A DNA stretch of 64,000 nucleotides from a virus. Below, in pieces: positions 10,301 to 37,100 of the stretch (position 1 is its first letter; every line of letters starts with the position of its first letter). The stretch is from IMG/VR virus record IMGVR_UViG_3300030012_002034, positions 1 through 64,000 of that record. One strand, given 5' to 3'. A model generated the notes under the pieces. It worked only from the letters and a program-made list of their open reading frames with translations. It had not been told where the DNA came from and ran no database searches. Position numbers and translations under genes: made by a program.

Positions 10301-13300
10301 CATTCTCCTTAATATCTTTCATGCTATCAATAGCATCAAAAGAAGGCATCTTAGTTTCTCTAGCTAACTTGTCTGTATTAGTTTTTAATATTTTTTTTAA
10401 TTTTTCTCTTACTTCCTCTACTACAATTTTTCTATTTTGAGGATTTAAAACTAAATTTAAAGTAGTAGACTTAGAACTTTTCTCCCCGGCCTTTGCCATA
10501 TCTTTTGACAGCTCATCAACAACTTCAGAGAATAAACTATCCATTGTAGATACAATTAGTTTAGAATCAGCATCATTTAATGCATCTTCTCTTCTATTAT
10601 CTACTTGTCTAATACCTCTATTTAATTGAAGAAACTCTGAATTCTTAACTGAAGGAGTATAATCTGCTAATAAGCTAGGGTCAGAACTAGACAAATATAA
10701 CCTAGAGTATAATTCATTAACAGCTGGTATACTCATTACATCTATGTTAGCAGCTTTGCTACTATTCTTAAATGCTTTTCCAAAAAGAGCTTTTAAAAAG
10801 TTTAAGATTTTTCTGAATATAGTATTACGCTTTGGTCTATTCTTTTTTATCTTAGGATTTTTAGCATAGCTTCTAAATTCTTCTGCTAAAATTTCTTCTA
10901 TTTGATAGTTAGAGTAATCTTTATATTTAGCATTACTGTTTCTTACTTCATCATATAAAGCTTTTCTTTGTTCAGGAGTTAAATACAATTGAGAGAATCC
11001 ATGCCAAGCTTCATGATAAATATCAACAGCTGTTCCTTTATCAAATACTTTTATAGTACCTAATGTAGAATCTGATAAAGCAGATGCATTTACAACAAAC
11101 TCTGCAAACTGACCTGAGTTAACTATATCAGTTATTTTTTCTAGACTTATTACTTTACTTAAAGGTGATGTACTCCACCATTTAACAGCATCTTCTATTT
11201 GTTTCTTAGTTACATTGTCAGGATCATAACCTTCTCTTTTTAAACTACTCCAATCTCCTTCCTTTTTAAATCTCTCTAATAATCTACCTGAGCTATTTGT
11301 AACATTTTGATTTGGATTAGGCTCTAAGTTAGAATCTATATTATCTGCTTTATTCTGATTTTCTTTAGATGCAGATTCTTTTCTTTTTTCCTCTTCTATT
11401 TTTTTTAGTTCTTCATCAGTATACCAAGGAACATCATCTTCTGTTTCAAGGATCTCTGTTAAATTTTGAGCATCTACTACTTCTTTTGCTTTAGATAAAC
11501 TTTCATTTAAAGCAGAATATGGATTCTTAAATGCAATAGACATATTATAAAATCCAGGATTAAGAGTATTTAACTTAACATTAATTCTATCTCCTATACT
11601 CATTAGAAATTCTCTAAAGTCCGTAGGTACTAGCTCTCCATCTATTAATCTTAAAAAAGGTTTAGTCTCTTGAACTATTGCTTCATTGTATATACCAACG
11701 GTGGGTCTCCAATTAGCAGGAGCTAAGTTTGTAGAATTATTATTGAGTGATGCATTCTTCCAATAGTAACCTTTTGCTAAAACAGTTTTAACAGCTTTGG
11801 CTGCATTTTCTCTTTGAGCTTTATTACTTAGTTTATCTTTACTTAATTCAATTATAATAGGCTTTTTACCTGATTCATCTATAATCTGAAAAGTACCATC
11901 CGTATTAATTTTATAGTTTCTTTGAGACTTACTTACATTATTATTTAAAAACTGATCAAGAAAAGCTTTTCTTTCAGATTTTGAAAATTTAGGATTAGTT
12001 ACAACCTCTGCTATTTCATTAATTAATTCCTCAGTAAGAATATATCTTTCTAATGCAAAGTTATTTCCATTTAAAGTAATATAAGCAGAACCAGAAAGAT
12101 TTACGTTTCTTGTTTTATTATTAGAAATTTTTATACTTTGTATAACTCTTTTTATATTGTTATCATTATTAGAATTAGTAGAGTTATTTAAAGCTTTTGA
12201 TAATACATCTAAAGATATATCAGGATTTACTAGTTCATCAGACATACCTTCTGTTATTCCTTGTATGTCAACAAGCATTGAATGATTTTTATTTTCCTTT
12301 CCTAAGAATTCTTTTTTAATTTTAGAAAGTATATCAGCTCTCTCATCTAAATATTCTTTTGCTTCTTCAACAGTAATTCCTAATCTTTTAGATAAAGCTT
12401 GAGGAGACATTATTCTTTCTTCTTTACCATAAATATCAGTTATCTTTGTACCGCTTTTATCTGTTCTTACATCTCTTAAAAATTGAAATACTACTTTACC
12501 ATCACTTCTTGATTCTGCATAAGAACCATCTTCAGTAAAGAATACAGGTTGTCCAAACTCATCTGCTATAATAGCAATAACTCTTTCATTAGCTTGAGTT
12601 ACTTCTTTACGTGCATCTCCTCTTTTTAATCTAGCAAAAGATTCTATAGCTTCTTGTTGTACAGATGCTGGTAATAAATCTCTTGTTTGTGAATTTGTAA
12701 CAAATGCATCAAACCTTACAAACTTTAATTTTAAAGTTTTAGTTTGTCCTGATAAATCGGTATAAGAAAAAGCTTGAGGACCAGTTCCTTCAAGTGTGTT
12801 ACTTAACTTTAGATTAGCTAAAGTATTTACTATAGTAGTTTGACTTGGATCTAGTTCTTGTATTTCAAGAGCATTACTGTTAGGCTTTTTTTTAACAAGG
12901 TTCTGTCCTGTAGTAGTTAAAGGATTATCAGACTGTCCTCTAAATATTTCTTTTTTAGGTTCTTTAGCAGGATCTTGTTCAACTAAAACAGGATTATTAT
13001 TATCTTGCTCATTAGTTGCTGCATCAAATAATACTTGTTTAGGATCTACAGAAAAGTTTTTTACAATCAAATCTATGCCTGTATCAGGATTTAAATATTC
13101 TAATGATAATTTTCTTAATTTATTTAAATCTAAATCTTGGCTTAAATCATCTTCAGCTATATATATCATAGATATCATCTTAGGTATAGGTTGAATAAAC
13201 TGAGCTGCTTGTTCTGCAGAACCTGTTTCTTCTTTAACCATATCAAATATATCTTGCATATAAGTATCCGGATCAAAGTTTTTATTTTCAAACATATCTC

Positions 13301-21824: not shown

Positions 21825-24575
21825 TTAATAGTACCATCCTCCTCTTTGCATTTGAGCAACAGGTGGCATCATTTGTCCACCTTGTTCTGCTACTGGTTGT
21901 GGTGGAGGCGGTATTAAATCTTCTTCTCTAATTCCATTTGCTTGCATATAAGGTCTTGCTACCATAGGTATACCTTGAGGAAAACCTTTTGATGATTCTT
22001 GAGCTAAAGCTAAAGCGCCTAGTTTCATGTTATAGTTTTCAATCATTAATTCAGCTGTTCTTCTAGTAATCTTATCTGAATTAGGATCTTCTAATAATGA
22101 TCTGTATTTATTAATATCATATTGTTTAGATAACTCAGCAGGAGTATAAGCAGGTTTTCTACGGCTACCTTTTTTCTTCTTACCTGATTTACCAAACATC
22201 TCTAACACATTAGGATCAGATATTTTCATACCTCCTGTTTTATAATCACTGTATATAAAACTATCATCTGGAAGATTTAATGGTACTCCGCCTTGAGCAT
22301 GTCTAGGGCCTACTATAGTATTATGTTCAGGAAACCCATCACCATTAATATCTCCAAATACTGTTTCTCCACCTTCTGCTTCTAAGTTAGCTTGATCTCT
22401 TGGAATAGCACCTATAGTTCTAGTAGTCTGACTAGAAGAAGGAATGCCTCCAACTTCATAAGCATCTGAATATCCAGGAGGTAATATTTGATTCATGTTA
22501 CTTGTACCAAAAGGCATCTTATGTGCTCCACCATGTTCATAGATTGCACCACCTTGTTGGACATTAAAAAATTGAGAATAAATATTAGGGTTAATACCCG
22601 CTCCTCTATCATTATAAGTATTTCTCATTTTACCTGCTAGTATTTGTCTAGCAGTCTTAGATGCTTCTTCAGATGTCATTCCAGGAAGCCTACCAATTTT
22701 ATTGTATACTTCTGCAAAGTCAGCTTCATAAGTTGGATCAGGTTTTTTAGGTGAAGGAGTAAACTCAAATTTACCACCTACACTTGGATCAAAACTATAA
22801 TCAGGATACATTTGATTCAGTGCATCTGCCTTATATCTATTAGTTAAAGCATTAGCATATTGATCTCTAAGAGCAGTTCTCATTGCTCTTTTAGTATTAT
22901 CAAACTGCTGATTAGCTATAGTAGTTGCATCATATAAACCTTGTTTAATCTTTTGATTAGCAAGAGCTTCTTTATTTCTTATATCAACATTTGCGGCAGC
23001 TTCTTGATTTTGGAAACCAACATTTTGTCTGTTATATTGATCAAGTAAATTTGCTGCATTACCTGCTGCCTTACTTTGAATACCAGATAGTCTAGCTGTT
23101 CCTTGTGGTCCCGCAAATGAAGCTGCTGCTTGAGATGCAATATTAGCTTGTTCTGCGTTAGCTGCTAAAGCTGCTGTAGGATCTACTCTTGCCATACTAA
23201 CTTCTTCAAAGTCAACAGGTGCTGCGTATGGTAAATATTTTTTAACTCCAGCTAAATCACTAGCTATACCAGTAGTCTTAATTGTATCTTGTAAATAAAA
23301 CGGTGCGGGAGCTTTAGGTTGTGCCATAGGTTGTTCTCCTTGACAAACACATTCTTCTTCACCAGTCTGAGGATTCTTTTGTTTAACTGCAGTTGAACCA
23401 TCAGCACAAGGTTGACATTCTTTTACTTCCTCTTTAGCTTCTGCACAAGGTAAACAGTTATTATCTTTATCTCTTTGAGGTGTTGTTCCATCAGGACATT
23501 TAGGACACTCTGAGTAAACAGGTTTAAGATCTAATGTTAAATTAGCTTGTCTTACACCAAACTTGTTTTCTACTTTACTTGTTATACCTTCTCCTGATTC
23601 TCTTTTACCTCTAAGATCTGCAAAAGGCAAACCTGTTAATTCTTCTACTCTTGTTTCAAGAGCTTTAAGTTTATTATAATATTCAGGAGAAGCTTTTTTA
23701 ACTTCTTCTACAGGAATCTGTCCTTTGTATCCTGGATTTTTTTTAGGATCTTTCCAACCTCTTTCTCTAAAACTTTTTGCTTCTGTTTCTCCTCTTCTTT
23801 TAAACTTATAATCAAGCATAAAATTTTGGAGTTCTTCATACTCTTTTTTAAGTTTTAATAGTTCATCATACTCAGATCTTCTCATTTTTTTAGTGACAGG
23901 TTTAGCACCATAATCACCAAAGTATGTTGACTCATCTCCTGTATCTGCAGCAGCTGGATTAACATATCCTGTATATCCTGCAGTTACTTCTACATATTCA
24001 TCAGGATTGTATGTCCCTGTAGATTTAACTTCTCCCTTATCTTGATATTTAGGAACAGTTCCTCCTTTTTGAATAAGTGTGAGATCTTTTGCACCCATCT
24101 TCTGTTCCTCAAATAAACCAGAATTAGGATTGAACCCTCCTCTAAAATCTTGAGTTTGACTAGCATAAAGTTCTTCTGGAGCAGTCATGTTTTCCATAAG
24201 CTCTCTTTCTTGCTTTGCAGCATTCATTCTATCAAAGAAACCTGCTACTCCTCTACCTACTGTATTTGCTTGATTTAAGAAAGATTCTGCATCAAAATTA
24301 AACATGTCCTTTCTCTTAAAGTCTTGAGTAAAAGTTCCTTCTTCTCTTTCATCAGCAAGAGTTGGGATTATCTTAGGAGGCAAAGTTTTCATTTTTGGTA
24401 ATTGTTTATCTATTGGAGAATTAACTCCACCAGCTACTCCACCGCCATCAAATATAAATTTTTGTAATCCTGCATAGTTTACCTTATTAGGTAATGAATA
24501 GTCAGTAGAAGGATATTTTTTTATCCTTACTTTACGTTTGTTACTTGGTAATCTTTTTATTCTAACTCTAGGCAT
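21825..24575 (-). CDS. Cargo protein (crAss cargo protein 1-like) with xxGG motifs
   Basis: 916 aa. ANLEAEGGETV...GPRHAQGGVP...IYSD resembles a motif I recall from crAss-like cargo proteins. It has an Ala/Gln/Asn-rich helical region, a small Cys cluster and several [F/Y/M]xxGG motifs. Confidence 0.6.
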   Translation of the reverse strand: MPRVRIKRLPSNKRKVRIKKYPSTDYSLPNKVNYAGLQKFIFDGGGVAGGVNSPIDKQLPKMKTLPPKIIPTLADEREEGTFTQDFKRKDMFNFDAESFLNQANTVGRGVAGFFDRMNAAKQERELMENMTAPEELYASQTQDFRGGFNPNSGLFEEQKMGAKDLTLIQKGGTVPKYQDKGEVKSTGTYNPDEYVEVTAGYTGYVNPAAADTGDESTYFGDYGAKPVTKKMRRSEYDELLKLKKEYEELQNFMLDYKFKRRGETEAKSFRERGWKDPKKNPGYKGQIPVEEVKKASPEYYNKLKALETRVEELTGLPFADLRGKRESGEGITSKVENKFGVRQANLTLDLKPVYSECPKCPDGTTPQRDKDNNCLPCAEAKEEVKECQPCADGSTAVKQKNPQTGEEECVCQGEQPMAQPKAPAPFYLQDTIKTTGIASDLAGVKKYLPYAAPVDFEEVSMARVDPTAALAANAEQANIASQAAASFAGPQGTARLSGIQSKAAGNAANLLDQYNRQNVGFQNQEAAANVDIRNKEALANQKIKQGLYDATTIANQQFDNTKRAMRTALRDQYANALTNRYKADALNQMYPDYSFDPSVGGKFEFTPSPKKPDPTYEADFAEVYNKIGRLPGMTSEEASKTARQILAGKMRNTYNDRGAGINPNIYSQFFNVQQGGAIYEHGGAHKMPFGTSNMNQILPPGYSDAYEVGGIPSSSQTTRTIGAIPRDQANLEAEGGETVFGDINGDGFPEHNTIVGPRHAQGGVPLNLPDDSFIYSDYKTGGMKISDPNVLEMFGKSGKKKKGSRRKPAYTPAELSKQYDINKYRSLLEDPNSDKITRRTAELMIENYNMKLGALALAQESSKGFPQGIPMVARPYMQANGIREEDLIPPPPQPVAEQGGQMMPPVAQMQRGGWYY

Positions 24576-24585
24576 AATTATAATT

Positions 24586-27500
24586 TTATATATATTCTAC
24601 TACTCCTCCACCCATTACAAACATTCTTATTTCTTCTTCGGTCATTTCAACTTCATCATCAATCATTGGACCTCCATAAGCCATTGATCCAGGAGTACCC
24701 ATAGCTTGAATAAAAGGATTTCCTTCTCCCTCATATATTCCTGTATTATCATCCGTACCCATTGGTCCAACTATTTGATTTTGAAGCATGTTTGCATTAA
24801 AAGGTCTTTCAGGATTTCTATTTTGTAATGTAGGCATACCTGTTCCTGTTGGATTAAATGTTGTAGCATCGCTACCATCCATTAAAACTCTTTGACCACG
24901 ACCTTGTCCCTTTACATTTACAGGAGTTGTAATTCTACCAGGAGAAAAAGCATTATATGATTTACCTGTAGCTGCTGATCCAAAATTTCCTGTTTTACCA
25001 AACTTCATTTTTTGATCAATATCTGCCATAGCAGCATTTCTTTCATCCTCTTGTTCTTTTGCAAATCTAGCTTCATCCTCTTGAAAGTTCATTTCTTCTT
25101 CCTCTCTAAACATTTGTTCCATCTCTGCATCTGTTATAACATCATCTTGAACATTATCAATTGCATTTTGATAATCCAGTTCTTCTTGTCTAGCTATTTC
25201 AGCTTCTTCTGCTTTTTGTTCTCGATATGAAAGCATACCATCTCCTACACCTTTTTTCATAGCTCTTCTTCTATTTCTTTCATATTTATTTTCTGCTCTT
25301 CTCTCTTTTCTGTTAAGTAAGTTATCAGTTTTTCTTTCAGCTCTAGAACGTGTATCTTGTTCTTCTGATGATACTCTATTTCCATCATCATCTACACCAT
25401 ACAACTTAGGAGCACCTGTTCCATATGTAGCAGTCCATCTTTTTGGTCTACCAAATATTCCAGATTTAGTTACATCAATCTTCTGAAGATTAGCTCCCGG
25501 AGGAACCATTCCCATAAATGGAGAACCTGATCTTTTATTATAGATAGGTTGTGCATAAGAACCTGCATAACTAAATGCTGGGTTAGCTGACATAAAGTTT
25601 CCAAATAGGTTACGCCCTCTTCCCATACTAGGATATCTCATACCTCTCATAGAATTCTGATAATTCTGCATTAGTTGTTGTTGCAGCATTTTCATTTGTT
25701 CAGGAGATATTCTTGAATTTGGATTTGGATTAGCTAAATTTGTATTGTTAGAACTAATACGTTGTTGTTCTTTAGCTCTTTGGTCTTGAACTTCTTGAGT
25801 AGGACTCATCATACCTAATGCAGGATCTAATCTAGGATCACCAGCTTGTTGTTGAGTATAATCTACTACTGGTCTTTTAGCATTAGGACCCACATCTGCA
25901 CCACTTACAGTAAACTGAGTAGCGCCAGCTTTTTGATATTCATCTAGTTCACCACCATACTTTTGTTGCATAATTTTTTGTTGAACTGACAAAGGTAATG
26001 CTTTAAAACCAGGATTATCATATGAACCTCCTTCTTTAAATACACCTCTACCTTTTAAGATATCAGCTCTAGTAACTTTACCATCACCTGTTAAATCAGG
26101 AAAGCCTCCTTTTTTGTATATCTCATCAGGATTTAAATCATATGTATCTATCATATATTCAAGTCCTTCATCACCACCAACTCTTTGATAGTATTCCCCT
26201 TTAGTTTCACCTTTAAAAGGTTTTCCTAAACTTTGATTATCATATAAGACTTCTTCTCTTGTATCACCAGGATTTCTTTCATCACCTGTACGTATATTAT
26301 TCATCATCCAATTTTGAAGAGTTTGATCATAAGAGTCTACAGGTTTTCTTGCAGATAAAGGTGACATATACACAGTTGGAATATCATAACTTTCTGAAGA
26401 CCCATCAGAATAGTTAATTAACGTCTTAGCTCCAAATCTATCTCCAGCTTTAAAAGCTGCTTCTGGATTATTTGGATCAGCATAAACTACGTTTAAGTTA
26501 TTATAATCCTCTTCATTATATAACTTCGGTCCTTGTCCTAAATAATTTGTTTCTTTTGTAACTGTTATTCCTCCAGGTTGATAAACATCTTCATCACCGC
26601 CATATACAAATTTATATAAGTCAGGATTAGATGAATCTGTAAAACCTCCTTGTTGAAATCCTGTATTCCATCCGGGATAGTTACTAATATAGTCTAATTC
26701 TTTTTGAGTATAATTTTTAGCTTTAAGTTCTTTTAGATATTCTTCTTTTGTCATTCCTTCATCTATTCTTTTTTGTATACTTCTTTTCCCCTTTCTTCCA
26801 TATTCCGCTACATCTTTCCACCCATCATGCCAAGACTTTATAGCATCTTCTTTTCCAGTAGGATTTACTGGACTATTTCCAACAGATTGAGCACCAGGTA
26901 ATTTCCAATCATCACCACTCCAAGTTTTAGTCATGTCTTCTTCAGAGAATGCTTCCATATATTCATCACCACCTCTACCAGTTCTTGCAAAGTAAGCTTG
27001 TAGAGTTTCTCCTATTACAGGATCATGGCCTGCATAATCAGAAGCCATTCTTCCTTGTTTTTCTATATCAGGAATACCATTTCTCATTTGAATTTCTTTT
27101 TCAGCTTTAGTAGTTGTATTTGCTTTATTGCTTTGAGTTATAAAAGGAACAGTATATTGATAAGGCATTCCCATACTAGATAACATCCCCTGCATCATCA
27201 TCATAGGATTTCCCATCATTCCCATAAGACCGCTGTATGCAGGATCTATTGTCATGCTATATTCTTTTGGATTACCGAAGATACCACTTTTTGTTACATT
27301 AATTTCTGAAACACCCGGCATCATCATACCACGTCTCATCATTTTTCTTATAGGTCTTGTAGCTCTTCTTAACATTCTACGTTGTTTACCTCCACCAAAT
27401 TGTGCACTAGGTACTTCTTCTTGCATGTTTGTCATATCAATTATTTCTTCTCCTATAGGAGGATTATACATTTGTTGTTGTTGTGCCATCATAGCATCAT

Positions 27501-29625
27501 ATTCAGCTTCTAGTCTTTTCTTTTCTTGATCTTTTGCTACATTAGTTTGAGCATAGTTTACAAGAACATTCTTTTGAGCTTCTCTAGTTCCTGTTTCATT
27601 ATTTACATTCCAAGGAGTTGCATTATTTATTTCTTGTCCACCAGCTTCAAAGTTTTTCATTCCTTGTTTAACATATTGTTTTTTAGAAATGACTCCTCCT
27701 CTTCGTGCCATAGTTTCCATAGGTAATGGAGAAGAAGATGGTGTTTGAGAATATCTCTCTAACCATTCTTTATTATATATATTTTCTCTTAATTGTTTTT
27801 CTCCTTCAGGTGAACTGTGTTCTTTCATAATATCCTTTATTCTATAATCAGGCATATCAGGATATAATTCTTTTAATTTTCCTTCTATATCAGTTCCTTC
27901 ATATGAAGCTGGTTTATCCTTCATTAATTCTTCTTCGGCTGGAGTAAGCTTTCTTTTTAAAAATTCTAGCTTAGGTCTTTCAGGAGCAATAATTGGAGAA
28001 AGATATTTATCAGCAGCATAGAAGCCTGCAGGTATCATACCATATTTACCTATACGCCATAATTTTCCACGGGTAGAGAGATCTTTAAAAGGTACACGCT
28101 TACTAGTTTTACCTGTAGAAGTACTTGTAGTTTTACCTGTAGTTGTTCCTACCGTTTCACCTGTCATTTGTTCAAGATAACTAAGATCTTCTATACCATC
28201 CTTTGCAACTTTACTTCCTTTTGGAACTCTACCACGTCTAAAAAAGTTTTTTATACCTTTAGGCATAAAAGGAAATATCATAGCTGTATTTAAAGCTGCC
28301 TTTGTAAGATTAAATTCTGAATCAGTATCTTTAAGTTTATCAGCAACTTGATTACCTAAATCATATAATCCTTCTGCACCAAAAGCTAAAGTTGATGGTC
28401 CAGCAGCCGGACCAACAGCAAAAGGAGTCATAGCAGTTATAGCAGCTAGCGTTTTAGTTTGATCTACAAAATCTCCTGAAGTTCCTCCTAAATAGTCAGG
28501 TAAGTCTTCTTGTTGATAACTAAAATCTCCTGTTGTAAGACCTCTTCCTAAAGCACTAAATGGATTCTTCTTCCATCTATATAATGCTTCTAATCCATCA
28601 TAACTAGCGCCAGGTCCAAAACCACGTCTGTTATTTGGATCTACTTCTGCTAAACCTTCTCTTACATACATACGGGACCAATCAGCTAGACCAATTTTAT
28701 CTGTATCTACTTTTCCATCTGGTGTATGGTACTTATCCCATAACATTTGTTTCCTTTCTAATTTTTGTCTTGCATCTCTAGCTTCAGTTCTATATTGTTT
28801 TCTATTCTTAAAAAAATTTGCTAACTGGTCAAGAGTTAAATTTTTATATTCAGGAAGTCTTTTATATTTTTCTAAAAATTCTTCTTGAGTCATATTAGGA
28901 TTATCCTTTAGTAGGCTTTTAGCTAAATCCGTAAACTGAGCTTCTCTTGCAGCTTGTTTATCTTCTTTAGTAAATTTTTCACTTCCAAAACCAGGTTTAC
29001 GGACATCAATAGTTACTTCCGGAATATTTATAACATCCCCTCCTTCTTGAGAATCAGGAATATCTTCTTCAACAGTTTCTTCTACTACTTCTTCTTCTTG
29101 ATTATCATCCATTGACTCAATCATCTCATCAACTTGATCATCCTCATTAACTCCTTCAGACATTGAAGAGTCTTGATTCATCTCATCAATTAGTAATTGT
29201 TCTTTAGCAGCAGCTGCTTCTTGCTGTTCTTGCTCAAGTCTTTTTCTTTCTGCAAGAGCTTCTTCTCTTTCTATTTCTGCCTGAGCTAAAGCTTTTTCAG
29301 AATCAGCTGAACTTCTTCCTTCAGTTATTCTTTTAATACTTAATTCAATAATAGTCTTAACTAAATTAGGATCCATACCCTGTTTAGTTAATGTTTCAAA
29401 TAACATTTGAGGATCAGCCTGGTCAATATCAAGAGAATCATATACATAATTATACAACTGTTCTTGTTCAGCAGGAGACATTCCTTGTTGTTGCGCACCT
29501 TGCTGAGGAGCCGCTTGTTGAGGAGCGCCACCTGCTTGTGCAAGAAATAAAAAGTTTTTTAAATTACTTCTATACTCTCCTTTGCCGTTTGGATCTTTAT
29601 ATATTCTTACTTTTCTCTTTGCCAT
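24586..29625 (-). CDS. Low-complexity modular virion protein with many xxGG motifs
   Basis: 1679 aa, rich in Q/M/G/E. Short modules are separated by AQAGG, SQEGG, ARRGG, FEAGG, AQFGG, FQQGG, YQPGG, YKKGG, FKEGG, MAYGG and others. Confidence 0.6.
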   Translation of the reverse strand: MAKRKVRIYKDPNGKGEYRSNLKNFLFLAQAGGAPQQAAPQQGAQQQGMSPAEQEQLYNYVYDSLDIDQADPQMLFETLTKQGMDPNLVKTIIELSIKRITEGRSSADSEKALAQAEIEREEALAERKRLEQEQQEAAAAKEQLLIDEMNQDSSMSEGVNEDDQVDEMIESMDDNQEEEVVEETVEEDIPDSQEGGDVINIPEVTIDVRKPGFGSEKFTKEDKQAAREAQFTDLAKSLLKDNPNMTQEEFLEKYKRLPEYKNLTLDQLANFFKNRKQYRTEARDARQKLERKQMLWDKYHTPDGKVDTDKIGLADWSRMYVREGLAEVDPNNRRGFGPGASYDGLEALYRWKKNPFSALGRGLTTGDFSYQQEDLPDYLGGTSGDFVDQTKTLAAITAMTPFAVGPAAGPSTLAFGAEGLYDLGNQVADKLKDTDSEFNLTKAALNTAMIFPFMPKGIKNFFRRGRVPKGSKVAKDGIEDLSYLEQMTGETVGTTTGKTTSTSTGKTSKRVPFKDLSTRGKLWRIGKYGMIPAGFYAADKYLSPIIAPERPKLEFLKRKLTPAEEELMKDKPASYEGTDIEGKLKELYPDMPDYRIKDIMKEHSSPEGEKQLRENIYNKEWLERYSQTPSSSPLPMETMARRGGVISKKQYVKQGMKNFEAGGQEINNATPWNVNNETGTREAQKNVLVNYAQTNVAKDQEKKRLEAEYDAMMAQQQQMYNPPIGEEIIDMTNMQEEVPSAQFGGGKQRRMLRRATRPIRKMMRRGMMMPGVSEINVTKSGIFGNPKEYSMTIDPAYSGLMGMMGNPMMMMQGMLSSMGMPYQYTVPFITQSNKANTTTKAEKEIQMRNGIPDIEKQGRMASDYAGHDPVIGETLQAYFARTGRGGDEYMEAFSEEDMTKTWSGDDWKLPGAQSVGNSPVNPTGKEDAIKSWHDGWKDVAEYGRKGKRSIQKRIDEGMTKEEYLKELKAKNYTQKELDYISNYPGWNTGFQQGGFTDSSNPDLYKFVYGGDEDVYQPGGITVTKETNYLGQGPKLYNEEDYNNLNVVYADPNNPEAAFKAGDRFGAKTLINYSDGSSESYDIPTVYMSPLSARKPVDSYDQTLQNWMMNNIRTGDERNPGDTREEVLYDNQSLGKPFKGETKGEYYQRVGGDEGLEYMIDTYDLNPDEIYKKGGFPDLTGDGKVTRADILKGRGVFKEGGSYDNPGFKALPLSVQQKIMQQKYGGELDEYQKAGATQFTVSGADVGPNAKRPVVDYTQQQAGDPRLDPALGMMSPTQEVQDQRAKEQQRISSNNTNLANPNPNSRISPEQMKMLQQQLMQNYQNSMRGMRYPSMGRGRNLFGNFMSANPAFSYAGSYAQPIYNKRSGSPFMGMVPPGANLQKIDVTKSGIFGRPKRWTATYGTGAPKLYGVDDDGNRVSSEEQDTRSRAERKTDNLLNRKERRAENKYERNRRRAMKKGVGDGMLSYREQKAEEAEIARQEELDYQNAIDNVQDDVITDAEMEQMFREEEEMNFQEDEARFAKEQEDERNAAMADIDQKMKFGKTGNFGSAATGKSYNAFSPGRITTPVNVKGQGRGQRVLMDGSDATTFNPTGTGMPTLQNRNPERPFNANMLQNQIVGPMGTDDNTGIYEGEGNPFIQAMGTPGSMAYGGPMIDDEVEMTEEEIRMFVMGGGVVEYI

Positions 29626-29642
29626 AATTTGGTATATATAAT

Positions 29643-29667
29643 ATTAATATACTAATTTTTAGTTTAA
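29643..29667 (-). promoter_or_regulatory. Candidate late-promoter motif
   Basis: TTAAACT-N9-TATATTAAT upstream of the 1679-aa gene. Confidence 0.5.
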
Positions 29668-29688
29668 TGTTTAAACATATAATGTTTA

Positions 29689-32600
29689 CTACTTTTTCTG
29701 CATAATTGTAAGATACTCTGAGTTTTTAATTGCATTTCGTGTATATGTATCTCTCTTATCTCCACCAGCCCATTCTCTTGGTAAGCTAGTAGATATATCT
29801 GAAACTTTCATTTTCTTACCCTTATTAGGACCTGTTCTATTTTTTCTAGTTTTATAGTAATAAGCTAAAATTGCTGCTGTTGCTTTAGCTGCATTTTTAG
29901 GATCCATAAAGGCTTTATTATTTGTTATCCCAATTGCTGCTAGCTTATCTTTTAATGAACCTTTCTTTCCTGCTTCACGGTATAATTTATCATCCTCCTC
30001 AACCCATTTCCATCTAAATTGTGTAAGACCAACACTTCTATTATTTCCTGTGAATCCCATTTGATATTTAGCTTCATAGTCAGGACTTCCAGATGAACCT
30101 CTTTTAATAACTTTTCTACCTAATCTAAGTGCATTACCTGCAGCACTATGTGTATCTCCAAAGTTACTTTCATTACCAAATATACCAAATGTAATTTTAG
30201 CAATTTCATTATACTCATCACCACTTACGCCCATAACTCTCATAACCTCTTTTTTACTATCTTCTAATGATTTTATAAAAGGTAATACAGTTTCATTATA
30301 TTCTACATTATCATCAATGTCAGTAGAAGTAAACTGATTATCTATAAATCTTTTTTGATCAAACTTAAATTTAATTGGTTTAGCACCAGCAACTCTTTTT
30401 TCTCTAGGTGTTCTATTAACTTTAGCATCACCGCTTTTAAAAATTAATTGACCATCTTCATATACAAATTTATTTTTATTTTCTTTTATGGTCTTTCCTT
30501 TTTCATCTTTATATACTTCAGGTAAAACAAATACTTCAGTTCCTGAACCAATATTATACTCGTTTTTCATTTTGTTTAGATCTGAACATATGCCATTAAT
30601 ACAACCATAACTCATTCTATTATCATCTAGATCTGCATTACCAAATTTATCTCTTCTGCTTATTGGAGCTCTATGAATTGCAGTAGGTATTTTTATACCT
30701 CTATCATTTACCATTGTAAAAGAAGGAGCATTTAAATATTCATATACATTATCAATAGTATATCTACCAGCTCCAGTTTGTTTATTACCAAGATTTCTGT
30801 CTTTTTCTACACTTATTGTTTGCTCATCACCCTTAAACATTCCTGTTCCTACTTCAAATGAATCAATTAGTTTATTGCCTCTATAAAGATGCATTCTTTG
30901 ATGCTCTTTATCTACAATCATATATTGTTTATTAGGATCTTTATTTGCTTGATAATTTATTATAAGATTTGATTGATCCATCTTATTCATATCATTTTTA
31001 TGTTTCTTAAGATCTTTAAAATTTTCATATCCTGAAAAGTCTACTTGTTTAATATTAGTATAAGGACTTTCAGCAAGTTCACTATAAGCATTTTTTAATG
31101 GTGTAAATACATTATTATCAATACCTTTTTTTATTTCTTCATATGTGTTTTTAGCTTGATCCATTTTTCTAGCAAATTCACCTTCAGAAACATCTTCTAT
31201 TACGTCATATCCTGTGGTTTCTTTTTTATATGCTTCTAATACATCAGCAGGTATTTGACTTTCTTTGACTGGTCCAGATTTTATAATTTTATCATATTCA
31301 GCTAATAATTCTTTATCACTTCTTTTTTTAACAGGGGTCATAAAATTTTTCTGACTTTCCATTAATTGTAATTGATCAGCAAGCTCTTGATCTTTAGCAA
31401 TCTGATCTCGTTTGCTAAAGTTCATGCTAAGTCTATTTGATAAGTTTTGAGCATCTTGATCTTCAGCTGGTGTATTATTTTGCTGATTTAATAAATTAAC
31501 TATATCACTTTCAAAGTCACCCGTAAAAGCTGGCAAACCATAGTCTGATGGAGTCTGTTGACTTTTAATTTGTTTTTCAACTTCTTGCCCTATTAATCTT
31601 TCTCTTTCTTTTTCCTCATCACTTCTAAGATCAAATTGTATACCTGCTGTTCTAGGTTTAAAAAATTCTTTAAAATTTTCATCAATAGATTTAGAAGGAT
31701 CATATGCAGAGTTTCTTACAAAAGGCGAATCTATCCTAAGCTTTGTAGGTTTAAAATTTGCCGCCATTTTTGTAAATGCAAATGGACTGTCATCAGGCTT
31801 TCCTAGATTAACATTACTAAATATATTAGATTGTTTAGGATATCTTCTTTCTCTTCTAGTTCTTCTTCTTTCTTGTTGAGCTAGCTTTTCAAATGCTTCA
31901 GAACTTAAATCATCTAAGCTTATTCTTCCTTTACGATATTTATATATTTCTCTATCTTCAGGGGTAACCTCTATTTTAGGTTGATTTAAAAGTGCATTTT
32001 CTTCTTTTGAAAGTTCTTCTCCATATATTTTAGATTTAATTGCAGCTAAAGGTTTACCCTTTGCTGTTACCCAATTATCAGCTCCAGATTTTTTTGTAAA
32101 ATATTTATCACCTTCTTTTTTATAATCCCAACCTCTTTGAGATATAACACTACCATCTTGATATTTAGGTATCTCTTCTACTATATATCCACCAGCTGCG
32201 TATTCTTTAATTTCTTCATCACTTAACTCAGCTTCTATATAGCCACCTTCTTGTAAACCAAACCTATCTCTAAGGCCAGTTCTTCTTCTACCTTTGCCTA
32301 TAATAACTCTAGGTGTTTTATCACGCTTTTGTCTACCATCTTGTTTACCTTCTCTTTCTTGTTGTCTAAGTTCTCTACGAGTATATCCTTCTTCTTCTGG
32401 CCAATTAAATTCTGGAGCCTCTGCAACAAATTGTTGTAGATTTGTAGGAATCACTTGAGGATCTAAAGTTTCCATTTGTGGAATAGTCATATCTTCAAAT
32501 GTAAGTTCTTCTTGAACGGGTGTTCTTCCTGCATAGTCAACATAATCCATTACCTCTTCTTCACTTGCCGCTGGAGTTTTTTTAATTACTTTATTTGGAT

Positions 32601-34173
32601 CAATAATAACTTCAAACTCTGGTTTTTTATAAAATACATTCCATGTTACATATTGATCATCTCCATGACCTGATGCATAATCAGTATCAGTAAAATCAGG
32701 ATTAAAACCATATTTTTTTCCTAAATTATAAATTCTTTTCATATCCGTATCAAGATGTAGCTCTCCTAATTCTTTTGGAGTAGAAACTAATTTTGTACCT
32801 CCTGGATAATTACTACTTAGTCTTTTTCTTGCAAAGTCATATTTATGCGTATATCTATCTGGATCTTTCTTCCAGTTATCATAAGATTTTTTATCTAAAA
32901 ATTTGTATGTTGAATATTCCTTATCTCTTAATAAATTATCATATCTTCTACGACTTGGTTTAGTCCAATCACCCTTACCTCCTTTAGTTATGTATGCTGT
33001 GAAAAAAGGTTCACCTCTAAAGTTTTGTCCTTTATTTATATTTTTTTGTTTTTTATAAAAAGCTTCTCTAGATAAATCATAAAGTTCTTTTCTTTTTAGA
33101 TACTCTTGATATCTAGGATCATTTTTATCTTTAACATATATAGGTCCTCCTGGTCCTGGTTCTCCTCCTTCTTTATAAGGATATTTAAATTTTGGATTAT
33201 TAGGTATGTAATCTTCAAGATCATTAGTATTATGAATTCTACCGTACCATGTATTTTTATAAGCTTTTAAATCTTCATTGATACTACCTTTACCTCTTTC
33301 TATATTTTGATAATACCAGTCTCTTCCTTTATTCATAAGAATTCTTCTCTCATTTTCTGGAAGTTTTCCTATGGTAGATTTATATATATCAGTAAAATCA
33401 CTACCTCTTCTACCAGGCCATTTGTTATCCTTTAATTGATCTCTACCATACTTTCTATAATATTCTTGAATAGCATAAGCTCTTGGATCTTTTCCTGTAT
33501 TATAAATAAAATCTGCAGCCTCACCTTTTTCAATAGGAGTTGGATAATAAATAAGATCAGGACCTATATTTTCCATTACCCAATTTATAGCATCTTCTCT
33601 AGTAGCTCCTGGTTTTAATTTAGGATTTCCGTAGTTGCTTAAACCTGTACCATATTGACTTCCTCTATTATACTCGTAATCCATGATTTTACCAATCTGA
33701 TGTCTTAAAAGTTCCTCATCTGTTTGCCTTCCCGGTTGTGCTTTAGGTAACTCTTCTACTATATAACCTCCTCTTTTATACTCTTCTATTTCTTCATCAG
33801 TAAGTTCTGCTTCTATATAATTTGGAGAACCTCCAAAATTTCTTTTAGGTAACTTTTTTATTTTACCATTATGAGTTCTAGCATATCTAGCTTCATTAGT
33901 TTCCATACTAGGTATTAAAGTTCCTGAATATGTTTTACCCTTAAAGTTCCAAGATACATTACCACCATTACCATACATTGGTATCTCATAAACAGAGTTT
34001 CCAGGAAATTGATATTCTCCACCAGGCATCATCATTTGTCTATTGCCTTTATCATCAATACCCAATACAGGATAATTTACACCCTGCATAGTTATGCGTC
34101 CATTTGCGTTTGGAATTAATGTATTCTCTCCTGGGTAAGCCCATTGACCATATTTACTTTTTTTAAATTTCAT
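29689..34173 (-). CDS. Multidomain virion-associated peptidoglycan-modifying protein (GH108-like + YkuD L,D-transpeptidase + lytic transglycosylase-like)
   Basis: YkuD: YMIVDKEHQRMHLY...TGAGRYTI...AIH...SYGCIN...GTEVFVLP. Lytic transglycosylase-like: GNESNFG...SVGLTQ...DPKNAAKAT. GH108/PG_binding_3-like: DFIYNTG...RDWYYQNI...YKNTWYGRI. Confidence 0.7.
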   Translation of the reverse strand: MKFKKSKYGQWAYPGENTLIPNANGRITMQGVNYPVLGIDDKGNRQMMMPGGEYQFPGNSVYEIPMYGNGGNVSWNFKGKTYSGTLIPSMETNEARYARTHNGKIKKLPKRNFGGSPNYIEAELTDEEIEEYKRGGYIVEELPKAQPGRQTDEELLRHQIGKIMDYEYNRGSQYGTGLSNYGNPKLKPGATREDAINWVMENIGPDLIYYPTPIEKGEAADFIYNTGKDPRAYAIQEYYRKYGRDQLKDNKWPGRRGSDFTDIYKSTIGKLPENERRILMNKGRDWYYQNIERGKGSINEDLKAYKNTWYGRIHNTNDLEDYIPNNPKFKYPYKEGGEPGPGGPIYVKDKNDPRYQEYLKRKELYDLSREAFYKKQKNINKGQNFRGEPFFTAYITKGGKGDWTKPSRRRYDNLLRDKEYSTYKFLDKKSYDNWKKDPDRYTHKYDFARKRLSSNYPGGTKLVSTPKELGELHLDTDMKRIYNLGKKYGFNPDFTDTDYASGHGDDQYVTWNVFYKKPEFEVIIDPNKVIKKTPAASEEEVMDYVDYAGRTPVQEELTFEDMTIPQMETLDPQVIPTNLQQFVAEAPEFNWPEEEGYTRRELRQQEREGKQDGRQKRDKTPRVIIGKGRRRTGLRDRFGLQEGGYIEAELSDEEIKEYAAGGYIVEEIPKYQDGSVISQRGWDYKKEGDKYFTKKSGADNWVTAKGKPLAAIKSKIYGEELSKEENALLNQPKIEVTPEDREIYKYRKGRISLDDLSSEAFEKLAQQERRRTRRERRYPKQSNIFSNVNLGKPDDSPFAFTKMAANFKPTKLRIDSPFVRNSAYDPSKSIDENFKEFFKPRTAGIQFDLRSDEEKERERLIGQEVEKQIKSQQTPSDYGLPAFTGDFESDIVNLLNQQNNTPAEDQDAQNLSNRLSMNFSKRDQIAKDQELADQLQLMESQKNFMTPVKKRSDKELLAEYDKIIKSGPVKESQIPADVLEAYKKETTGYDVIEDVSEGEFARKMDQAKNTYEEIKKGIDNNVFTPLKNAYSELAESPYTNIKQVDFSGYENFKDLKKHKNDMNKMDQSNLIINYQANKDPNKQYMIVDKEHQRMHLYRGNKLIDSFEVGTGMFKGDEQTISVEKDRNLGNKQTGAGRYTIDNVYEYLNAPSFTMVNDRGIKIPTAIHRAPISRRDKFGNADLDDNRMSYGCINGICSDLNKMKNEYNIGSGTEVFVLPEVYKDEKGKTIKENKNKFVYEDGQLIFKSGDAKVNRTPREKRVAGAKPIKFKFDQKRFIDNQFTSTDIDDNVEYNETVLPFIKSLEDSKKEVMRVMGVSGDEYNEIAKITFGIFGNESNFGDTHSAAGNALRLGRKVIKRGSSGSPDYEAKYQMGFTGNNRSVGLTQFRWKWVEEDDKLYREAGKKGSLKDKLAAIGITNNKAFMDPKNAAKATAAILAYYYKTRKNRTGPNKGKKMKVSDISTSLPREWAGGDKRDTYTRNAIKNSEYLTIMQKK

Positions 34174-37100
34174 TACCTTTGAGATAGTTGAGTTTTAGTA
34201 TTAACCATTTTAATAACCATATTAACCGGTCCTGATATATTTCTTTTTAAACTTATAAAGTTAGCATAATGTCTAAATCTTTTACGCTGCTCTCTTGGTT
34301 TTTGATAATCAATATTTATAGGATTAAGCTCTCTTATATATCCATTTGGTTTAGTTATCCATATATGTCTTTCATTATAATTACCATCTAATACAGTACT
34401 TCCTGGTATTACAGGAGCATTTGGAGGATAACCCGCACCTATAGGAAACTCTCCTCTATCTTTAGTAATGTCCCAGAATTGATTAAATCTATATTTCTGT
34501 TCTTCTTTTGAGAATAATATATCATATGAAGGATTAGCCACATTATACTTTGGATAATCTAAAGATAATGGTAAGTCGTTCTTTGGCATTAAGTTTAAAT
34601 TTAATAAACCTGATACTTGTTCTGAATTATAAATCACAGCTTCATCAAAGTTAAAGTCTAATACATGAAACTGATCAAAACAATTAAATTCAGCTCTTTT
34701 ATAACATTCTAATAGATATTCTACACTTTTTAATGTTCCTACATTTTGTCCTGTAGATGCAACTAATTCTATTTCAAAAGGATAATTTCTACCATAATAA
34801 TTACCATAGTCATTACAAACATTATTATGTTTCCATAATTCATTTCTTTTTGTAGTCACCCAAGTATTTTTTCCAGGCATCATTAAATCCGGATGCCAAT
34901 CATGGAAAGAAATAAACATTTTACTTTTAGGATCAAAACTTATGGTCCATGACGCATCATCAAAAATCTCAGGATCTCCAAGTTTAAATTTAGTGGCTCT
35001 TCTATCTTTTATAATAAATACATCTTTTGCAAAATCATAAGTAACTTGCCCAACAAACTCTGACTTAAGCTTATAGTCTTTCTTAGAAAAGTATAAAAGT
35101 AAATTGTCATTATCATATAATGTTTGACAACCAATGCCGCATACTGGATTATTAGTATAAGGATAATCTGGAAAATCTTGTGCTAACTGATAAGGCAGAT
35201 AAGTATCAAACCACCACTTCATTCCATTTTGAGATATTTCATTTAATCCATTAGCATAAGAAAATATCTTACCTTGGTTTTGAGATATATAAAAGAATCC
35301 TGCTGGTGTTGATAATATAGATTTAGAATCTTGACAAGATCCATATTCAAATGGTGCAGCTGCTACAGATATATTTTGAGGCGGTTGAGCAAAAAGTCCT
35401 CCATCTCCAATTGTAAGCTCTGTATTTGCATCAGTAGTAATAGTATCTACTCCTCTATATATTATTGGACTCTGATTATGAAAAGTAATAAACATACCAC
35501 TTTTAGCAAAAGATTTAACACCGCTAATTGCAGCCTTCATATCTTTATAGTTATTAACTAAATATACTTTCCATGCATCTTTATATGAAGCATCCTGTTG
35601 AGGTAAAGAATAAATAATTCTATTTGGGTAAGATTCATAACATAACTTAGCTATATCTGGATCATAGTTTCTATTCTGTAAGTTTCCTTGTGAGAAGTAC
35701 TGAGTCCAAGCTTTTGAAATACTTAATGAATAATCATACAAGTAAGTATTGTCTCTTGTTATAATTTGAGGGTCCATATTAAACATACTTCTATAATCAG
35801 TATATCTATATGGATCATAATGTTTTTCTGCAATATTGTTAGTTGTTTCTCTAAAGTCAACTAATACATCACTTTCTACAAAAAAGTCTCTTATTGAAGA
35901 TGCTGATAAATAAAAGAATGCATCTTTAATAGTGAATAATCCAGGAGGATCTCCTTCCATTTGAGCTGTTGCATAATTATATCTGCTACCAGAATTTTTG
36001 AAATAGTCAAGTTCATAAAAAGCTTTTGGAAATATTCCTGTTCCAGGAGTACTGTTTCCTATAAAGTTAGCAGGCATTAAATTAAATGCTTCATAACTAG
36101 TACTATTAGCCCAGAACCTAGGTTCATGAATCATTTGATATAATTTATAGTTATACTCAAATCCATCAGGTTGACCATATAGCCAATCATAGAAAAAGAA
36201 CATGTTATTCTTTTCTGTATATCTATTTATAAATGTATCTCCTCCAAAAAATACTGGAGTATTAGGTATTATATTTAGATGTAAAGGATTAGGATCATTA
36301 GTACCACATATAGGCCCATTTGGCTGTAATCTAAAGTCTTTTTGTTCACACGGTGTTATTGGTATTTGTTTAATAGAATTTAATTGTCCATATTGATTTT
36401 GTAATCTAAATTTTAAACCTCCGTAATAACTTCCTATAGGTAAACTAAACCCATTTGCTTGAGGATCATCTGTAGTAGGTAATGCTCCACTAGGTGAACC
36501 AGGAGGTGCACCAGTTTGTATTAAAGCTCCTAAAGTAGTTAATGATTTATCTTCATCAATTAAAAGTTTAGGTCCTTCAAACTGATTAGGATGTCCATAA
36601 GGACCTGTTTTAGTTCTTAAAGTTACGTGACTATTTCTTTTAAGATTATTTATTTTATATGATACACTGCCTGATGTATTCTGATATAAAGGCACATCTT
36701 GAAAAGTATTCTTAGTATAGAAGCTATCTTCTATTTTAAATCTAGAAGTACTAGAAGTTTTTACAGCTTCCATATTATCATATAAACCATGACACTTCAT
36801 CTGAAGAGCATATTGTCTAAATGGTGTAAGTGCTCTTATAAGTTTTGCAGTAGTATCAGCACCTTCTGAAAAATAAAATGTTAAATGATTTAAAGCACCT
36901 AAAAATCTACTAGCTGGATCTAAGTATGCAAACTTAGGATACTCAACAGTTTGTAGTTGTTGTAAAGGACTTGCAGCATCTGTTGCAATTAAAGCTAATG
37001 CAGGATCTAAAATAGTAGTTTTAAGCCCACCTACGGCAGTATCAGGTACACCTGAAACAACAGCTGTAATAGCATCTGTTAAAAATCCAGTACCAGAATT

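Follow-up and report, generated by a model that had tools for sequence, protein, structure and literature searches.

We analyzed a 64,000-nucleotide stretch of DNA, referred to below as the window, which represents the first 64 kb of the 107-kb virus record IMGVR_UViG_3300030012_002034 (CheckV completeness, 91%), and in particular three adjacent genes whose long products, termed here cargo proteins 1, 2, and 3 (Table 1), are dotted with short motifs ending in two glycines. The DNA has a G+C content of about 30%, and nearly all late genes of the window are on the minus strand. A preliminary description of this locus listed the same three open reading frames (ORFs), which exist as given there, all on the minus strand. 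They are located directly downstream of the gene for the crassvirus muzzle protein and upstream of the virion RNA polymerase block, and the ORFs that come after them encode proteins of 1189, 1611, and 3997 amino acids (aa). Thus, the muzzle identity of the preceding ORF places the three genes in the cargo gene position. In phage crAss001, the same position is taken by gp45 and gp46, which are virion cargo proteins, followed by the virion RNA polymerase proteins (PMC10172136). For gp45 and gp46 of crAss001, as well as for gp040 of Cellulophaga phage phi4:1, presence in the virion is annotated or has been reported from mass spectrometry. Judging from these parallels, the three large proteins of this marine crAss-like phage are most likely packed into the particle and injected.

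PHROGs contains no family for any of the three cargo proteins, a tblastn search of 50,697 phage records with proteins 1 and 2 gave zero matches, and sequence searches of the PDB returned chance-level matches only. Likewise, a Foldseek comparison of the protein 3 model with the PDB found nothing at E ≤ 0.001. The nearest relatives of the cargo proteins are metagenome sequences, including Tara Oceans assemblies. By the muzzle protein, the closest cultured phages, which are a Leptolyngbya phage and the Cellulophaga phages phi4:1 and phi17:2, are just 26% identical.

Diglycine seams at the borders of exchangeable modules

All pentapeptides named in the preliminary description are present in the three proteins, and 5 of the 30 have G or xG in place of the GG ending (AQPG, YQDG, YQDKG, YQKAG, and FDGGG, the last of these read in a shifted register). 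Comparison with a shuffled background (1000 shuffles per protein) shows that the three proteins together have 22 [FYMA]xxGG motifs, whereas 5.8 would be expected, with 6 against 1.4 in protein 3 (P = 0.001), 11 against 2.8 in protein 2 (P < 0.001), and 5 against 1.6 in protein 1 (P = 0.023). For [FY]xxGG, the counts in proteins 3, 2, and 1 are 4, 7, and 4, with 0.6, 1.2, and 0.9 expected. The pattern is also as specific as had been suggested, since none of the 22 other window ORFs of at least 150 aa, including those for the capsid, portal, muzzle, and giant polymerase block proteins, is enriched.

Because this motif had been defined after looking at the sequences, it was tested on independent data. 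Searching with the muzzle protein retrieved 40 related uncultured loci from IMG/VR, in which a 3- to 6-fold motif excess is seen in the three genes that come first after the muzzle gene but not in the fourth. Among cultured phages, the short motif is carried by crAss001, whose gp45 has 8 copies of [FYMA]xxGG against 2.6 expected, and by phi4:1, where gp040, encoded by the second gene after the muzzle homologue, has 4 copies of [FYMH][QKRA]xGG against 0.2 expected. In 150 distant proteins that carry the junction tag described below, [FYMA]xxGG is found 801 times against 184 expected. The context of 904 GG sites in cargo proteins of the related loci shows F, Y, M, or H three positions before GG (about 3-fold), Q, K, R, or A two positions before it (2- to 3-fold), Y, D, or E one position before, T, V, I, or L two positions after, and acidic residues farther upstream; GG itself is 1.5-fold over expectation. 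This GG-ended pattern, referred to here as a seam, is real and widespread in cargo proteins.

The expectation that modules would be gained or lost at the motifs was borne out by the orthologues, in which long insertions and deletions (indels) begin and end there. A comparison of all orthologue pairs yielded 156 distinct indels, each at least 15 residues long and well aligned on either side, although these events are not fully independent. In 69 of them, one or both boundaries have a GG no more than 4 residues away (26 expected), and in 29 this is true of both boundaries (1.3 expected). Orthologues that are 66 to 88% identical to the window proteins are encoded in contig IMGVR_UViG_3300030103_003629. 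Compared with them, protein 3 differs by a 92-aa block between two QQGGP sequences, protein 2 differs by two blocks, one of 78 aa bounded by AQ(F)GG and FQQGG and one of 180 aa bounded by YQPGG and FKEGG, and protein 1 differs by a 49-aa block between YGNGG and NFGG, as well as by a module swapped between AQPG and the next GG. In the protein 3 orthologue (L001:12448-15468), a perfect 18-nucleotide direct repeat, CAACAAGGTGGTCCAATA, encoding QQGGPI, flanks the extra 92-aa module; window protein 3 retains a single copy of it, as expected for short-homology deletion or insertion.

The bracketing of mini-modules by motifs, noted in the preliminary description, holds for both mini-modules of protein 2. 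When the window is compared with the L001 orthologue, its two insertions (78 and 180 aa) are located exactly at the seams of the mini-module cluster (Table 1), and the mini-modules are variably present or absent among homologues P0005 to P0011. One of them, FPDLTGDGKVTRADILKGRGV (residues 1176 to 1197; ~26035-26100), resembles a single EF-hand/dockerin-type calcium loop; it has GG on both sides and is found in P0006 to P0011 but not in the closest orthologue. Elsewhere, protein 2 contains two copies of the repeat PG(V/A)xxI(N/D)VTKSGIFGxPK(E/R)(Y/W)(S/T)xT (residues ~770 to 800 and 1385 to 1420), which is also present in the distant homologues P0006 to P0011.

Protein 1 has the sole Pfam domain in the three cargo proteins, the YkuD module, followed by a C-terminal region that is SLT-like by motif reading only. 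Beyond residue 100, its modules are matched by the closest relative alone, so that only the frame around them is conserved. Two domain names from the preliminary description had to be revised. The “Tudor-like” segment is indeed a beta module (residues 73 to 107) bracketed by motifs, but its fold matches are weak (Z of 3.6 to 3.8), and the “GH108-like” label for residues 150 to 335 finds no Pfam support even at E ≤ 5. Residues 384 to 457 (~32803-33024) bear a weak, nonsignificant likeness to the colicin E7 DNase domain in its N-terminal part (PDB 2ERH; E = 0.18).

In protein 3, two conserved domains, a helical “PQGTARLS...NQ” domain (residues ~440 to 600) and an “EANLEAEGGE” domain (residues 720 to 895), come in the reverse order compared with 19 orthologues (comparison with L004 to L042), and only the closest relative shares the window order. 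The same protein, otherwise almost free of cysteine, contains a Cys-rich stretch at residues 357 to 413 (~23337-23507) with the pattern CPKCP...CLPC...CQPC...CVC. AlphaFold2 (AF2) predicts small hairpins for this stretch, and Foldseek gives weak RecR zinc-finger-like matches.

According to the AF2 models, most of the motifs are located either where a domain ends or in linkers modeled with low confidence. The protein 3 model (21 sequences) has a mean predicted local distance difference test (pLDDT) score of 56, and 8 of its 9 phi-x-x-GG sites (phi being the hydrophobic or aromatic residue) are in stretches that score below 50; such stretches account for 47% of its length. For protein 1 (residues 1 to 360; 29 sequences), the model consists of a confident beta domain (residues 1 to 66; pLDDT of ~90), whose last strand is the seam strand 60 to 65, followed by the small beta module 73 to 107, low-confidence linkers at 110 to 121 and 142 to 150, and a short helix at 126 to 134. 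Overall, 11 of 14 seams are found in stretches with a pLDDT below 50, which cover ~46% of residues (binomial P = 0.014). Since Gly-rich stretches score low anyway, AF2 supports the term “seam” only moderately.

A junction tag and the enzymes between its copies

In almost all orthologues of proteins 1 and 2, the C terminus is formed by a common peptide of about 45 residues, referred to here as the tag. It consists of phi-x-x-GG, 4 to 9 mostly acidic residues, a helix with the sequence (L/M)(T/S)xEEIxx(F/Y), a G-G or G-Y pair, and a short strand (e.g., YIVEEL or ELEYL) just before the stop codon. Three glycines, the starting GG and one further inside, are invariant in 37 aligned diverse tags. 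Of 99 genome ORFs that were compared, only those for cargo proteins 1 and 2 have the tag (Table 1). The internal copies in protein 1 proper cover residues 102 to 142 and 637 to 668, and PK(A/Y)QxG comes directly after each of them. In relatives, protein 1 typically has one tag after the N-terminal domain and one at the C terminus.

A search of 1.84 billion cluster representatives with the tag profile found matches in at least 1,116 clusters (50% identity) at E ≤ 1e-3 and in 218 at E ≤ 1e-10. The best 150 matches contain 2 to 4 tag copies per protein, and in 134 of 149 of them a copy is located no more than 8 residues from the C terminus. Ten tag-bearing proteins that we looked up were all unnamed or annotated as “hypothetical protein.” In 34 tag-bearing proteins, Pfam recognizes SET (9 proteins), VanY (4), SLT, YkuD, and PG_binding_1 (2 each), Amidase_2 and ART-PolyVal (1 each), and lysozymes of two families (2 each), and these payload domains lie between tags. 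According to these matches, the variable parts are predicted enzymes, mostly cell wall directed, with some probably aimed at host proteins, and the carriers of SET and ART-PolyVal (tag-bearing relatives such as P0013, P0018, P0019, P0025, P0026, and P0030) are candidate injected host-modifying effectors. Several of the SET-matching relatives start with MKKYITKQS.IKGAGKGLFT. The GG seams and the tag have apparently not been described before: they are not in the crAss001 papers, in the study by Iyer et al. 2017 (PMC5512222), or in the 2023 review.

The N termini are constant as well. The N-terminal beta domain of protein 1 is found in 24 related loci at E ≤ 1e-4 and has a weak fold likeness to small cupins and beta-sandwiches (Z of 5.7). 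Proteins 2 and 3 start with basic leaders (Table 1); the one in protein 2 is kept in orthologues and resembles the N terminus of crAss001 gp45. The leaders have a mean charge of about +4 (for protein 2, over residues 2 to 13), and the C termini of proteins 1 and 2 have mean charges of -0.7 to -1.6 (genome mean, +0.7), a complementarity of predicted charges that is only suggestive.

Table 1. Genes and features of the cargo locus, in window coordinates
Feature	Position	Strand	Description
Crassvirus muzzle protein gene	34173-39485	-	1770-aa ORF; Pfam PF25731 crAss_MUZ, E = 5.6e-26
Cargo gene 1	29689-34173	-	1494 aa; first gene after muzzle; N-terminal beta domain, two internal tags, YkuD and SLT-like modules
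N-terminal beta domain, protein 1 residues 1-71	33961..34173	-	Last strand SVYEIP leads into seam MYGNGG
Tag copy 1, protein 1 residues 102-152	33718..33870	-	RNFGG, acidic helix, KRGG, strand YIVEEL, PKAQPG; tag profile E = 9.6e-14
Tag copy 2, protein 1 residues 637-677	32143..32265	-	Tag profile E = 7.4e-12; C terminus in most orthologues
YkuD (L,D-transpeptidase-type) module, protein 1 residues 1083-1194	30592..30927	-	Pfam PF03734, E = 3.5e-5, 24.8 bits against a cutoff of 23.4
Cargo gene 2	24586-29625	-	1679 aa; basic leader ending in GG, 11 [FYMA]xxGG, mini-module cluster, C-terminal tag
Basic leader, protein 2	29527..29625	-	KRKVRIYK ... AQAGG
Mini-module cluster, protein 2 residues 986-1240	25906..26670	-	Each ends in phi-x-x-GG; EF-hand/dockerin-like loop and GFKALPLSVQQKIM modules
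C-terminal tag, protein 2 residues 1635-1679	24589..24723	-	MAYGG to FVMGGGVVEYI; tag profile E = 1.3e-13; conserved in distant homologues
Cargo gene 3	21825-24575	-	916 aa; basic leader in duplicate with GGG at its end; residues 720-895 form a conserved domain
Basic leader, protein 3	24426..24575	-	RVRIK/KVRIK strand twice, ends in FDGGGVAGG
HEAWH zincin-type motif	10959..11036	-	Residue 782 of the neighboring 3997-aa virion protein; only candidate protease

Proposed hinges and handles or possible cleavage sites

The preliminary description had left a choice between polyproteins cut into small internal proteins and a repeated signal for loading or sorting. The view of cassette-built cargo with the motif as a module border has held up, and of the two options, loading or sorting fits better, because the tag ends the great majority of related proteins and separates their variable modules. 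We infer that the three genes encode modular cargo (ejection) proteins, in which uncut seams serve as hinges, tags and leaders serve as handles, and cassettes are exchanged at the seams, and we give this reading about an even chance of being right. Each cargo protein would then be a chain of independently folding, exchangeable modules in a constant frame that may be composed of three elements: a conserved N terminus, which is the beta domain in protein 1 and a basic, strand-like leader with a final GG in proteins 2 and 3; short seams, in which acidic residues are followed by phi-[QKRA]-x-G-G and then a hydrophobic position, wherever one module borders on another; and the tag of about 45 residues with its predicted amphipathic helix, placed after modules and usually at the protein end. 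As flexible hinges, the uncut seams would let each module unfold and refold alone during threading through the portal and tail. Tags and leaders would provide constant handles for loading any payload into the procapsid and could also hold or order that payload on a virion part, such as the portal, the tail rings, or neighboring cargo. The seams may double as short-homology sites for the gain and loss of cassettes.

Several points weigh against this reading. Gly-rich stretches tend to score as disordered, which makes the linker result partly circular; the AF2 confidence over the tag is moderate (~68 for the helix), and the tag strand is not predicted. The cargo is presumed rather than seen to be intact in virions, and the virion partner of the tag is putative. 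A zincin-type HEAWH motif is present in the co-packaged 3997-aa neighbor. Finally, peptide mass fingerprinting was applied to peak lists available for the virion gel of crAss001 (supplementary file 14 of PMC6235969) and covered bands 1 to 10, with the smallest bands, 11 to 13, outside this range. Bands 1 to 9 could be assigned to gp44, gp50/47, gp49/44, gp20, gp26/22, gp22/25, gp25, and gp23, whereas gp45 was never above chance in bands 1 to 10 (>300 to ~58 kDa), so full-length gp45 is not demonstrated either. In the same gel, the two top bands, 1 and 2, best fit the 156-kDa muzzle protein gp44, which suggests assemblies resistant to sodium dodecyl sulfate.

In a rival reading, the seams, or the seam after each tag, would be cut by a virion-borne protease, such as the zincin-type neighbor, or by a host protease to yield module-sized pieces, either at head maturation, as originally proposed, or after ejection. 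We consider such polyprotein processing doubtful. The gel data without full-length gp45 would agree with it but are no positive evidence for it. The motif is found at module borders and ends in GG with Q, K, or R two positions before, like the diglycine sites of viral and ubiquitin-like proteases; the leaders of 12 to 46 residues in proteins 2 and 3 are propeptide-like; and the tag that protein 1 carries internally ends where other proteins have their natural C termini. However, in the leaders the motif has no upstream module to release, and at the C termini the last GG is followed by 5 to 9 residues whose conservation would make no sense if they were released as a stub. The site itself also differs. 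The adenain consensus is (M/I/L)-x-G-G, cut before the following residue x, with the hydrophobic residue at P4, whereas the 904 GG sites show the hydrophobic or aromatic preference at P5 and Q, K, R, or A at P4. No protease of a suitable family was found by six-frame searches of the 91%-complete genome: these gave no match to the clan CE families C5 and C48 (PF00770 and PF02902; C57 and C63 were not searched), to the C39 peptidases of the double-glycine-leader type (PF03412), or to the prohead proteases S77 and S78 (PF03420 and PF04586). The three cargo proteins have no HExxH motif, and such motifs in the 3997-aa virion protein count in favor of cutting. A Zincin-like domain has been reported in the polymerase gene block of crAss-like phages, whose fused forms have been surmised to be cleaved (Drobysheva et al., bioRxiv 10.1101/2020.03.07.982082). 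Polyvalent proteins are predicted to be autoprocessed, and DarA and DdrB of phage P1 are processed, but the N4 virion RNA polymerase, which bears such a peptidase domain, is packaged unprocessed (PMC5512222). The published cryo-electron microscopy (cryo-EM) model of crAss001 gp45 covers residues 425 to 552 (PMC10172136). This range holds a full seam, A425-F426-G427-G428-W429, as well as GG434-435 and GG447-448, and by that range the virion chain would run uncut through all three sites. Cargo cleavage goes unmentioned in both the crAss001 papers and the 2023 review.

It is unlikely that the seams are an evolutionary by-product, that is, ordinary flexible linkers with no binding or signaling role that are alike through descent, duplication of cassettes together with their linkers, and short-homology recombination. 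Such an origin would agree with the direct repeat around one cassette, the low information outside GG (0.3 to 0.5 bit at positions -3 to -1), the location of seams in predicted disorder, and the tendency of cassettes to travel with one seam attached. However, the codons of the motif vary, which rules out a common DNA-level signal, and the motif and the tag persist at the protein level over muzzle identities of 26 to 56% and over the 1,116 clusters. The invariance of the starting GG and the third, internal glycine, the position of the tag at the extreme C terminus, and the aromatic or Met preference three positions before GG, which a plain linker would not need, all speak against such an origin.

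Two further HExxH motifs should be mentioned here. The 3997-aa protein (1365-13358) has a second one, HEQNH, at residue 3915, with no Pfam match for either of the two. The third, HELLH, is encoded in the replication module of the genome (92311-93504), in a 397-aa ORF beside a 391-aa ORF, again with no Pfam match.

A more specific form of the handle function would be an address or coupling code, in which the acidic C-terminal tag docks on a virion part or pairs with the basic leader of the next protein (e.g., KRVRIYK..GG), so that the cargo is loaded and ejected as a train in gene order. Any enzyme placed between two tags would then become an injectable effector, and the internal junctions would represent fused contacts. 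This proposal is speculative and probably goes too far; its variant with the virion zincin cutting the train at the seams after ejection is weaker still.

If the hinge-and-handle reading is right, a constant frame around exchangeable modules would explain how wall-degrading enzymes, SET methyltransferases, and ADP-ribosyltransferases have been recruited into the particle. The finding bears on how megadaltons of protein get loaded and injected, and the tag would offer an easy way to search metagenomes for injected effectors by sequence. Should the tag prove to be the loading signal, foreign proteins could be packed into phage particles. Cutting at the seams is directly testable, since cultured crAss001 and phi4:1 carry the short motif.

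Relation to known systems

By position, the three proteins are crassvirus cargo, but neither the protease nor the site consensus that defines diglycine-processed polyproteins was found. A close counterpart is gp45 of Bacteroides phage crAss001 (cargo protein C1; PDB 7QOG and related entries; Bayfield et al. 2023, PMC10172136), which shares with them the position after the muzzle gene, a basic leader ending in GG, and the motif excess. In the virion, gp45 is held in segments on the portal and tail (PMC10172136). Its cryo-EM-resolved segments, 214 to 245 and 425 to 552, start just after or at such motifs and stop just before one. It also has a tag-like stretch at residues ~556 to 595, whose match to the tag is not significant (E = 0.53). 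However, no sequence or profile homology between gp45 and the window proteins was detected (hhalign probability of 0.1 with the protein 3 alignment), nor was a fold match, and the motif is not described in its literature. Membership in the Pfam family crAss_CARG1 (PF25725) was considered and rejected, as a six-frame search of the whole genome gave no match at E ≤ 10 and Pfam scans of the three proteins gave none.

The polyvalent proteins described by Iyer et al. 2017 (PMC5512222) similarly combine unrelated effector domains, including peptidoglycan enzymes, in one virion-associated polypeptide and show extensive mosaicism. The cargo proteins conform to this in having YkuD (by Pfam) and SLT-like (by motif only) modules in protein 1 and SET, VanY, lysozyme, amidase, and ART-PolyVal domains in relatives. 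In contrast to the cargo proteins, no conserved junction peptide was described for polyvalent proteins, and the words “linker,” “glycine,” and “crAss” do not occur in that paper (PMC5512222). Release of polyvalent effectors is expected to depend on built-in peptidase domains, which the three cargo proteins lack.

The polyproteins of adenovirus (cut by adenain, a C5 protease) and African swine fever virus (cut by pS273R) share with the cargo proteins the recurrence of xxGG at domain borders of virion proteins. They differ in that no clan CE protease was found here, the hydrophobic residue lies one position off, and the gp45 chain is described as running unbroken across three sites.

Capsid-targeting peptides, which include the capsid-targeting sequence (CTS) of T4 internal proteins, those of the P1 Dar proteins, and the C-terminal cargo-loading peptides of encapsulins, resemble the tag if it is read as a short constant terminal peptide that would load varied cargo into an HK97-type shell. 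They show no homology to it, however, and the tag in the window is also internal and multicopy. The T4 CTS is removed by the prohead protease of the gp21 type, for which there was no match here (PF03420 and PF04586).

Lastly, polymorphic toxins have demarcation motifs, such as VENN of CdiA and PxxxxDPxGL of Rhs. As with the seams, these are short conserved peptides between a constant part and an exchangeable payload; they have a different sequence and serve a different delivery machine, and there is one of them per protein, whereas each cargo protein has many seams.

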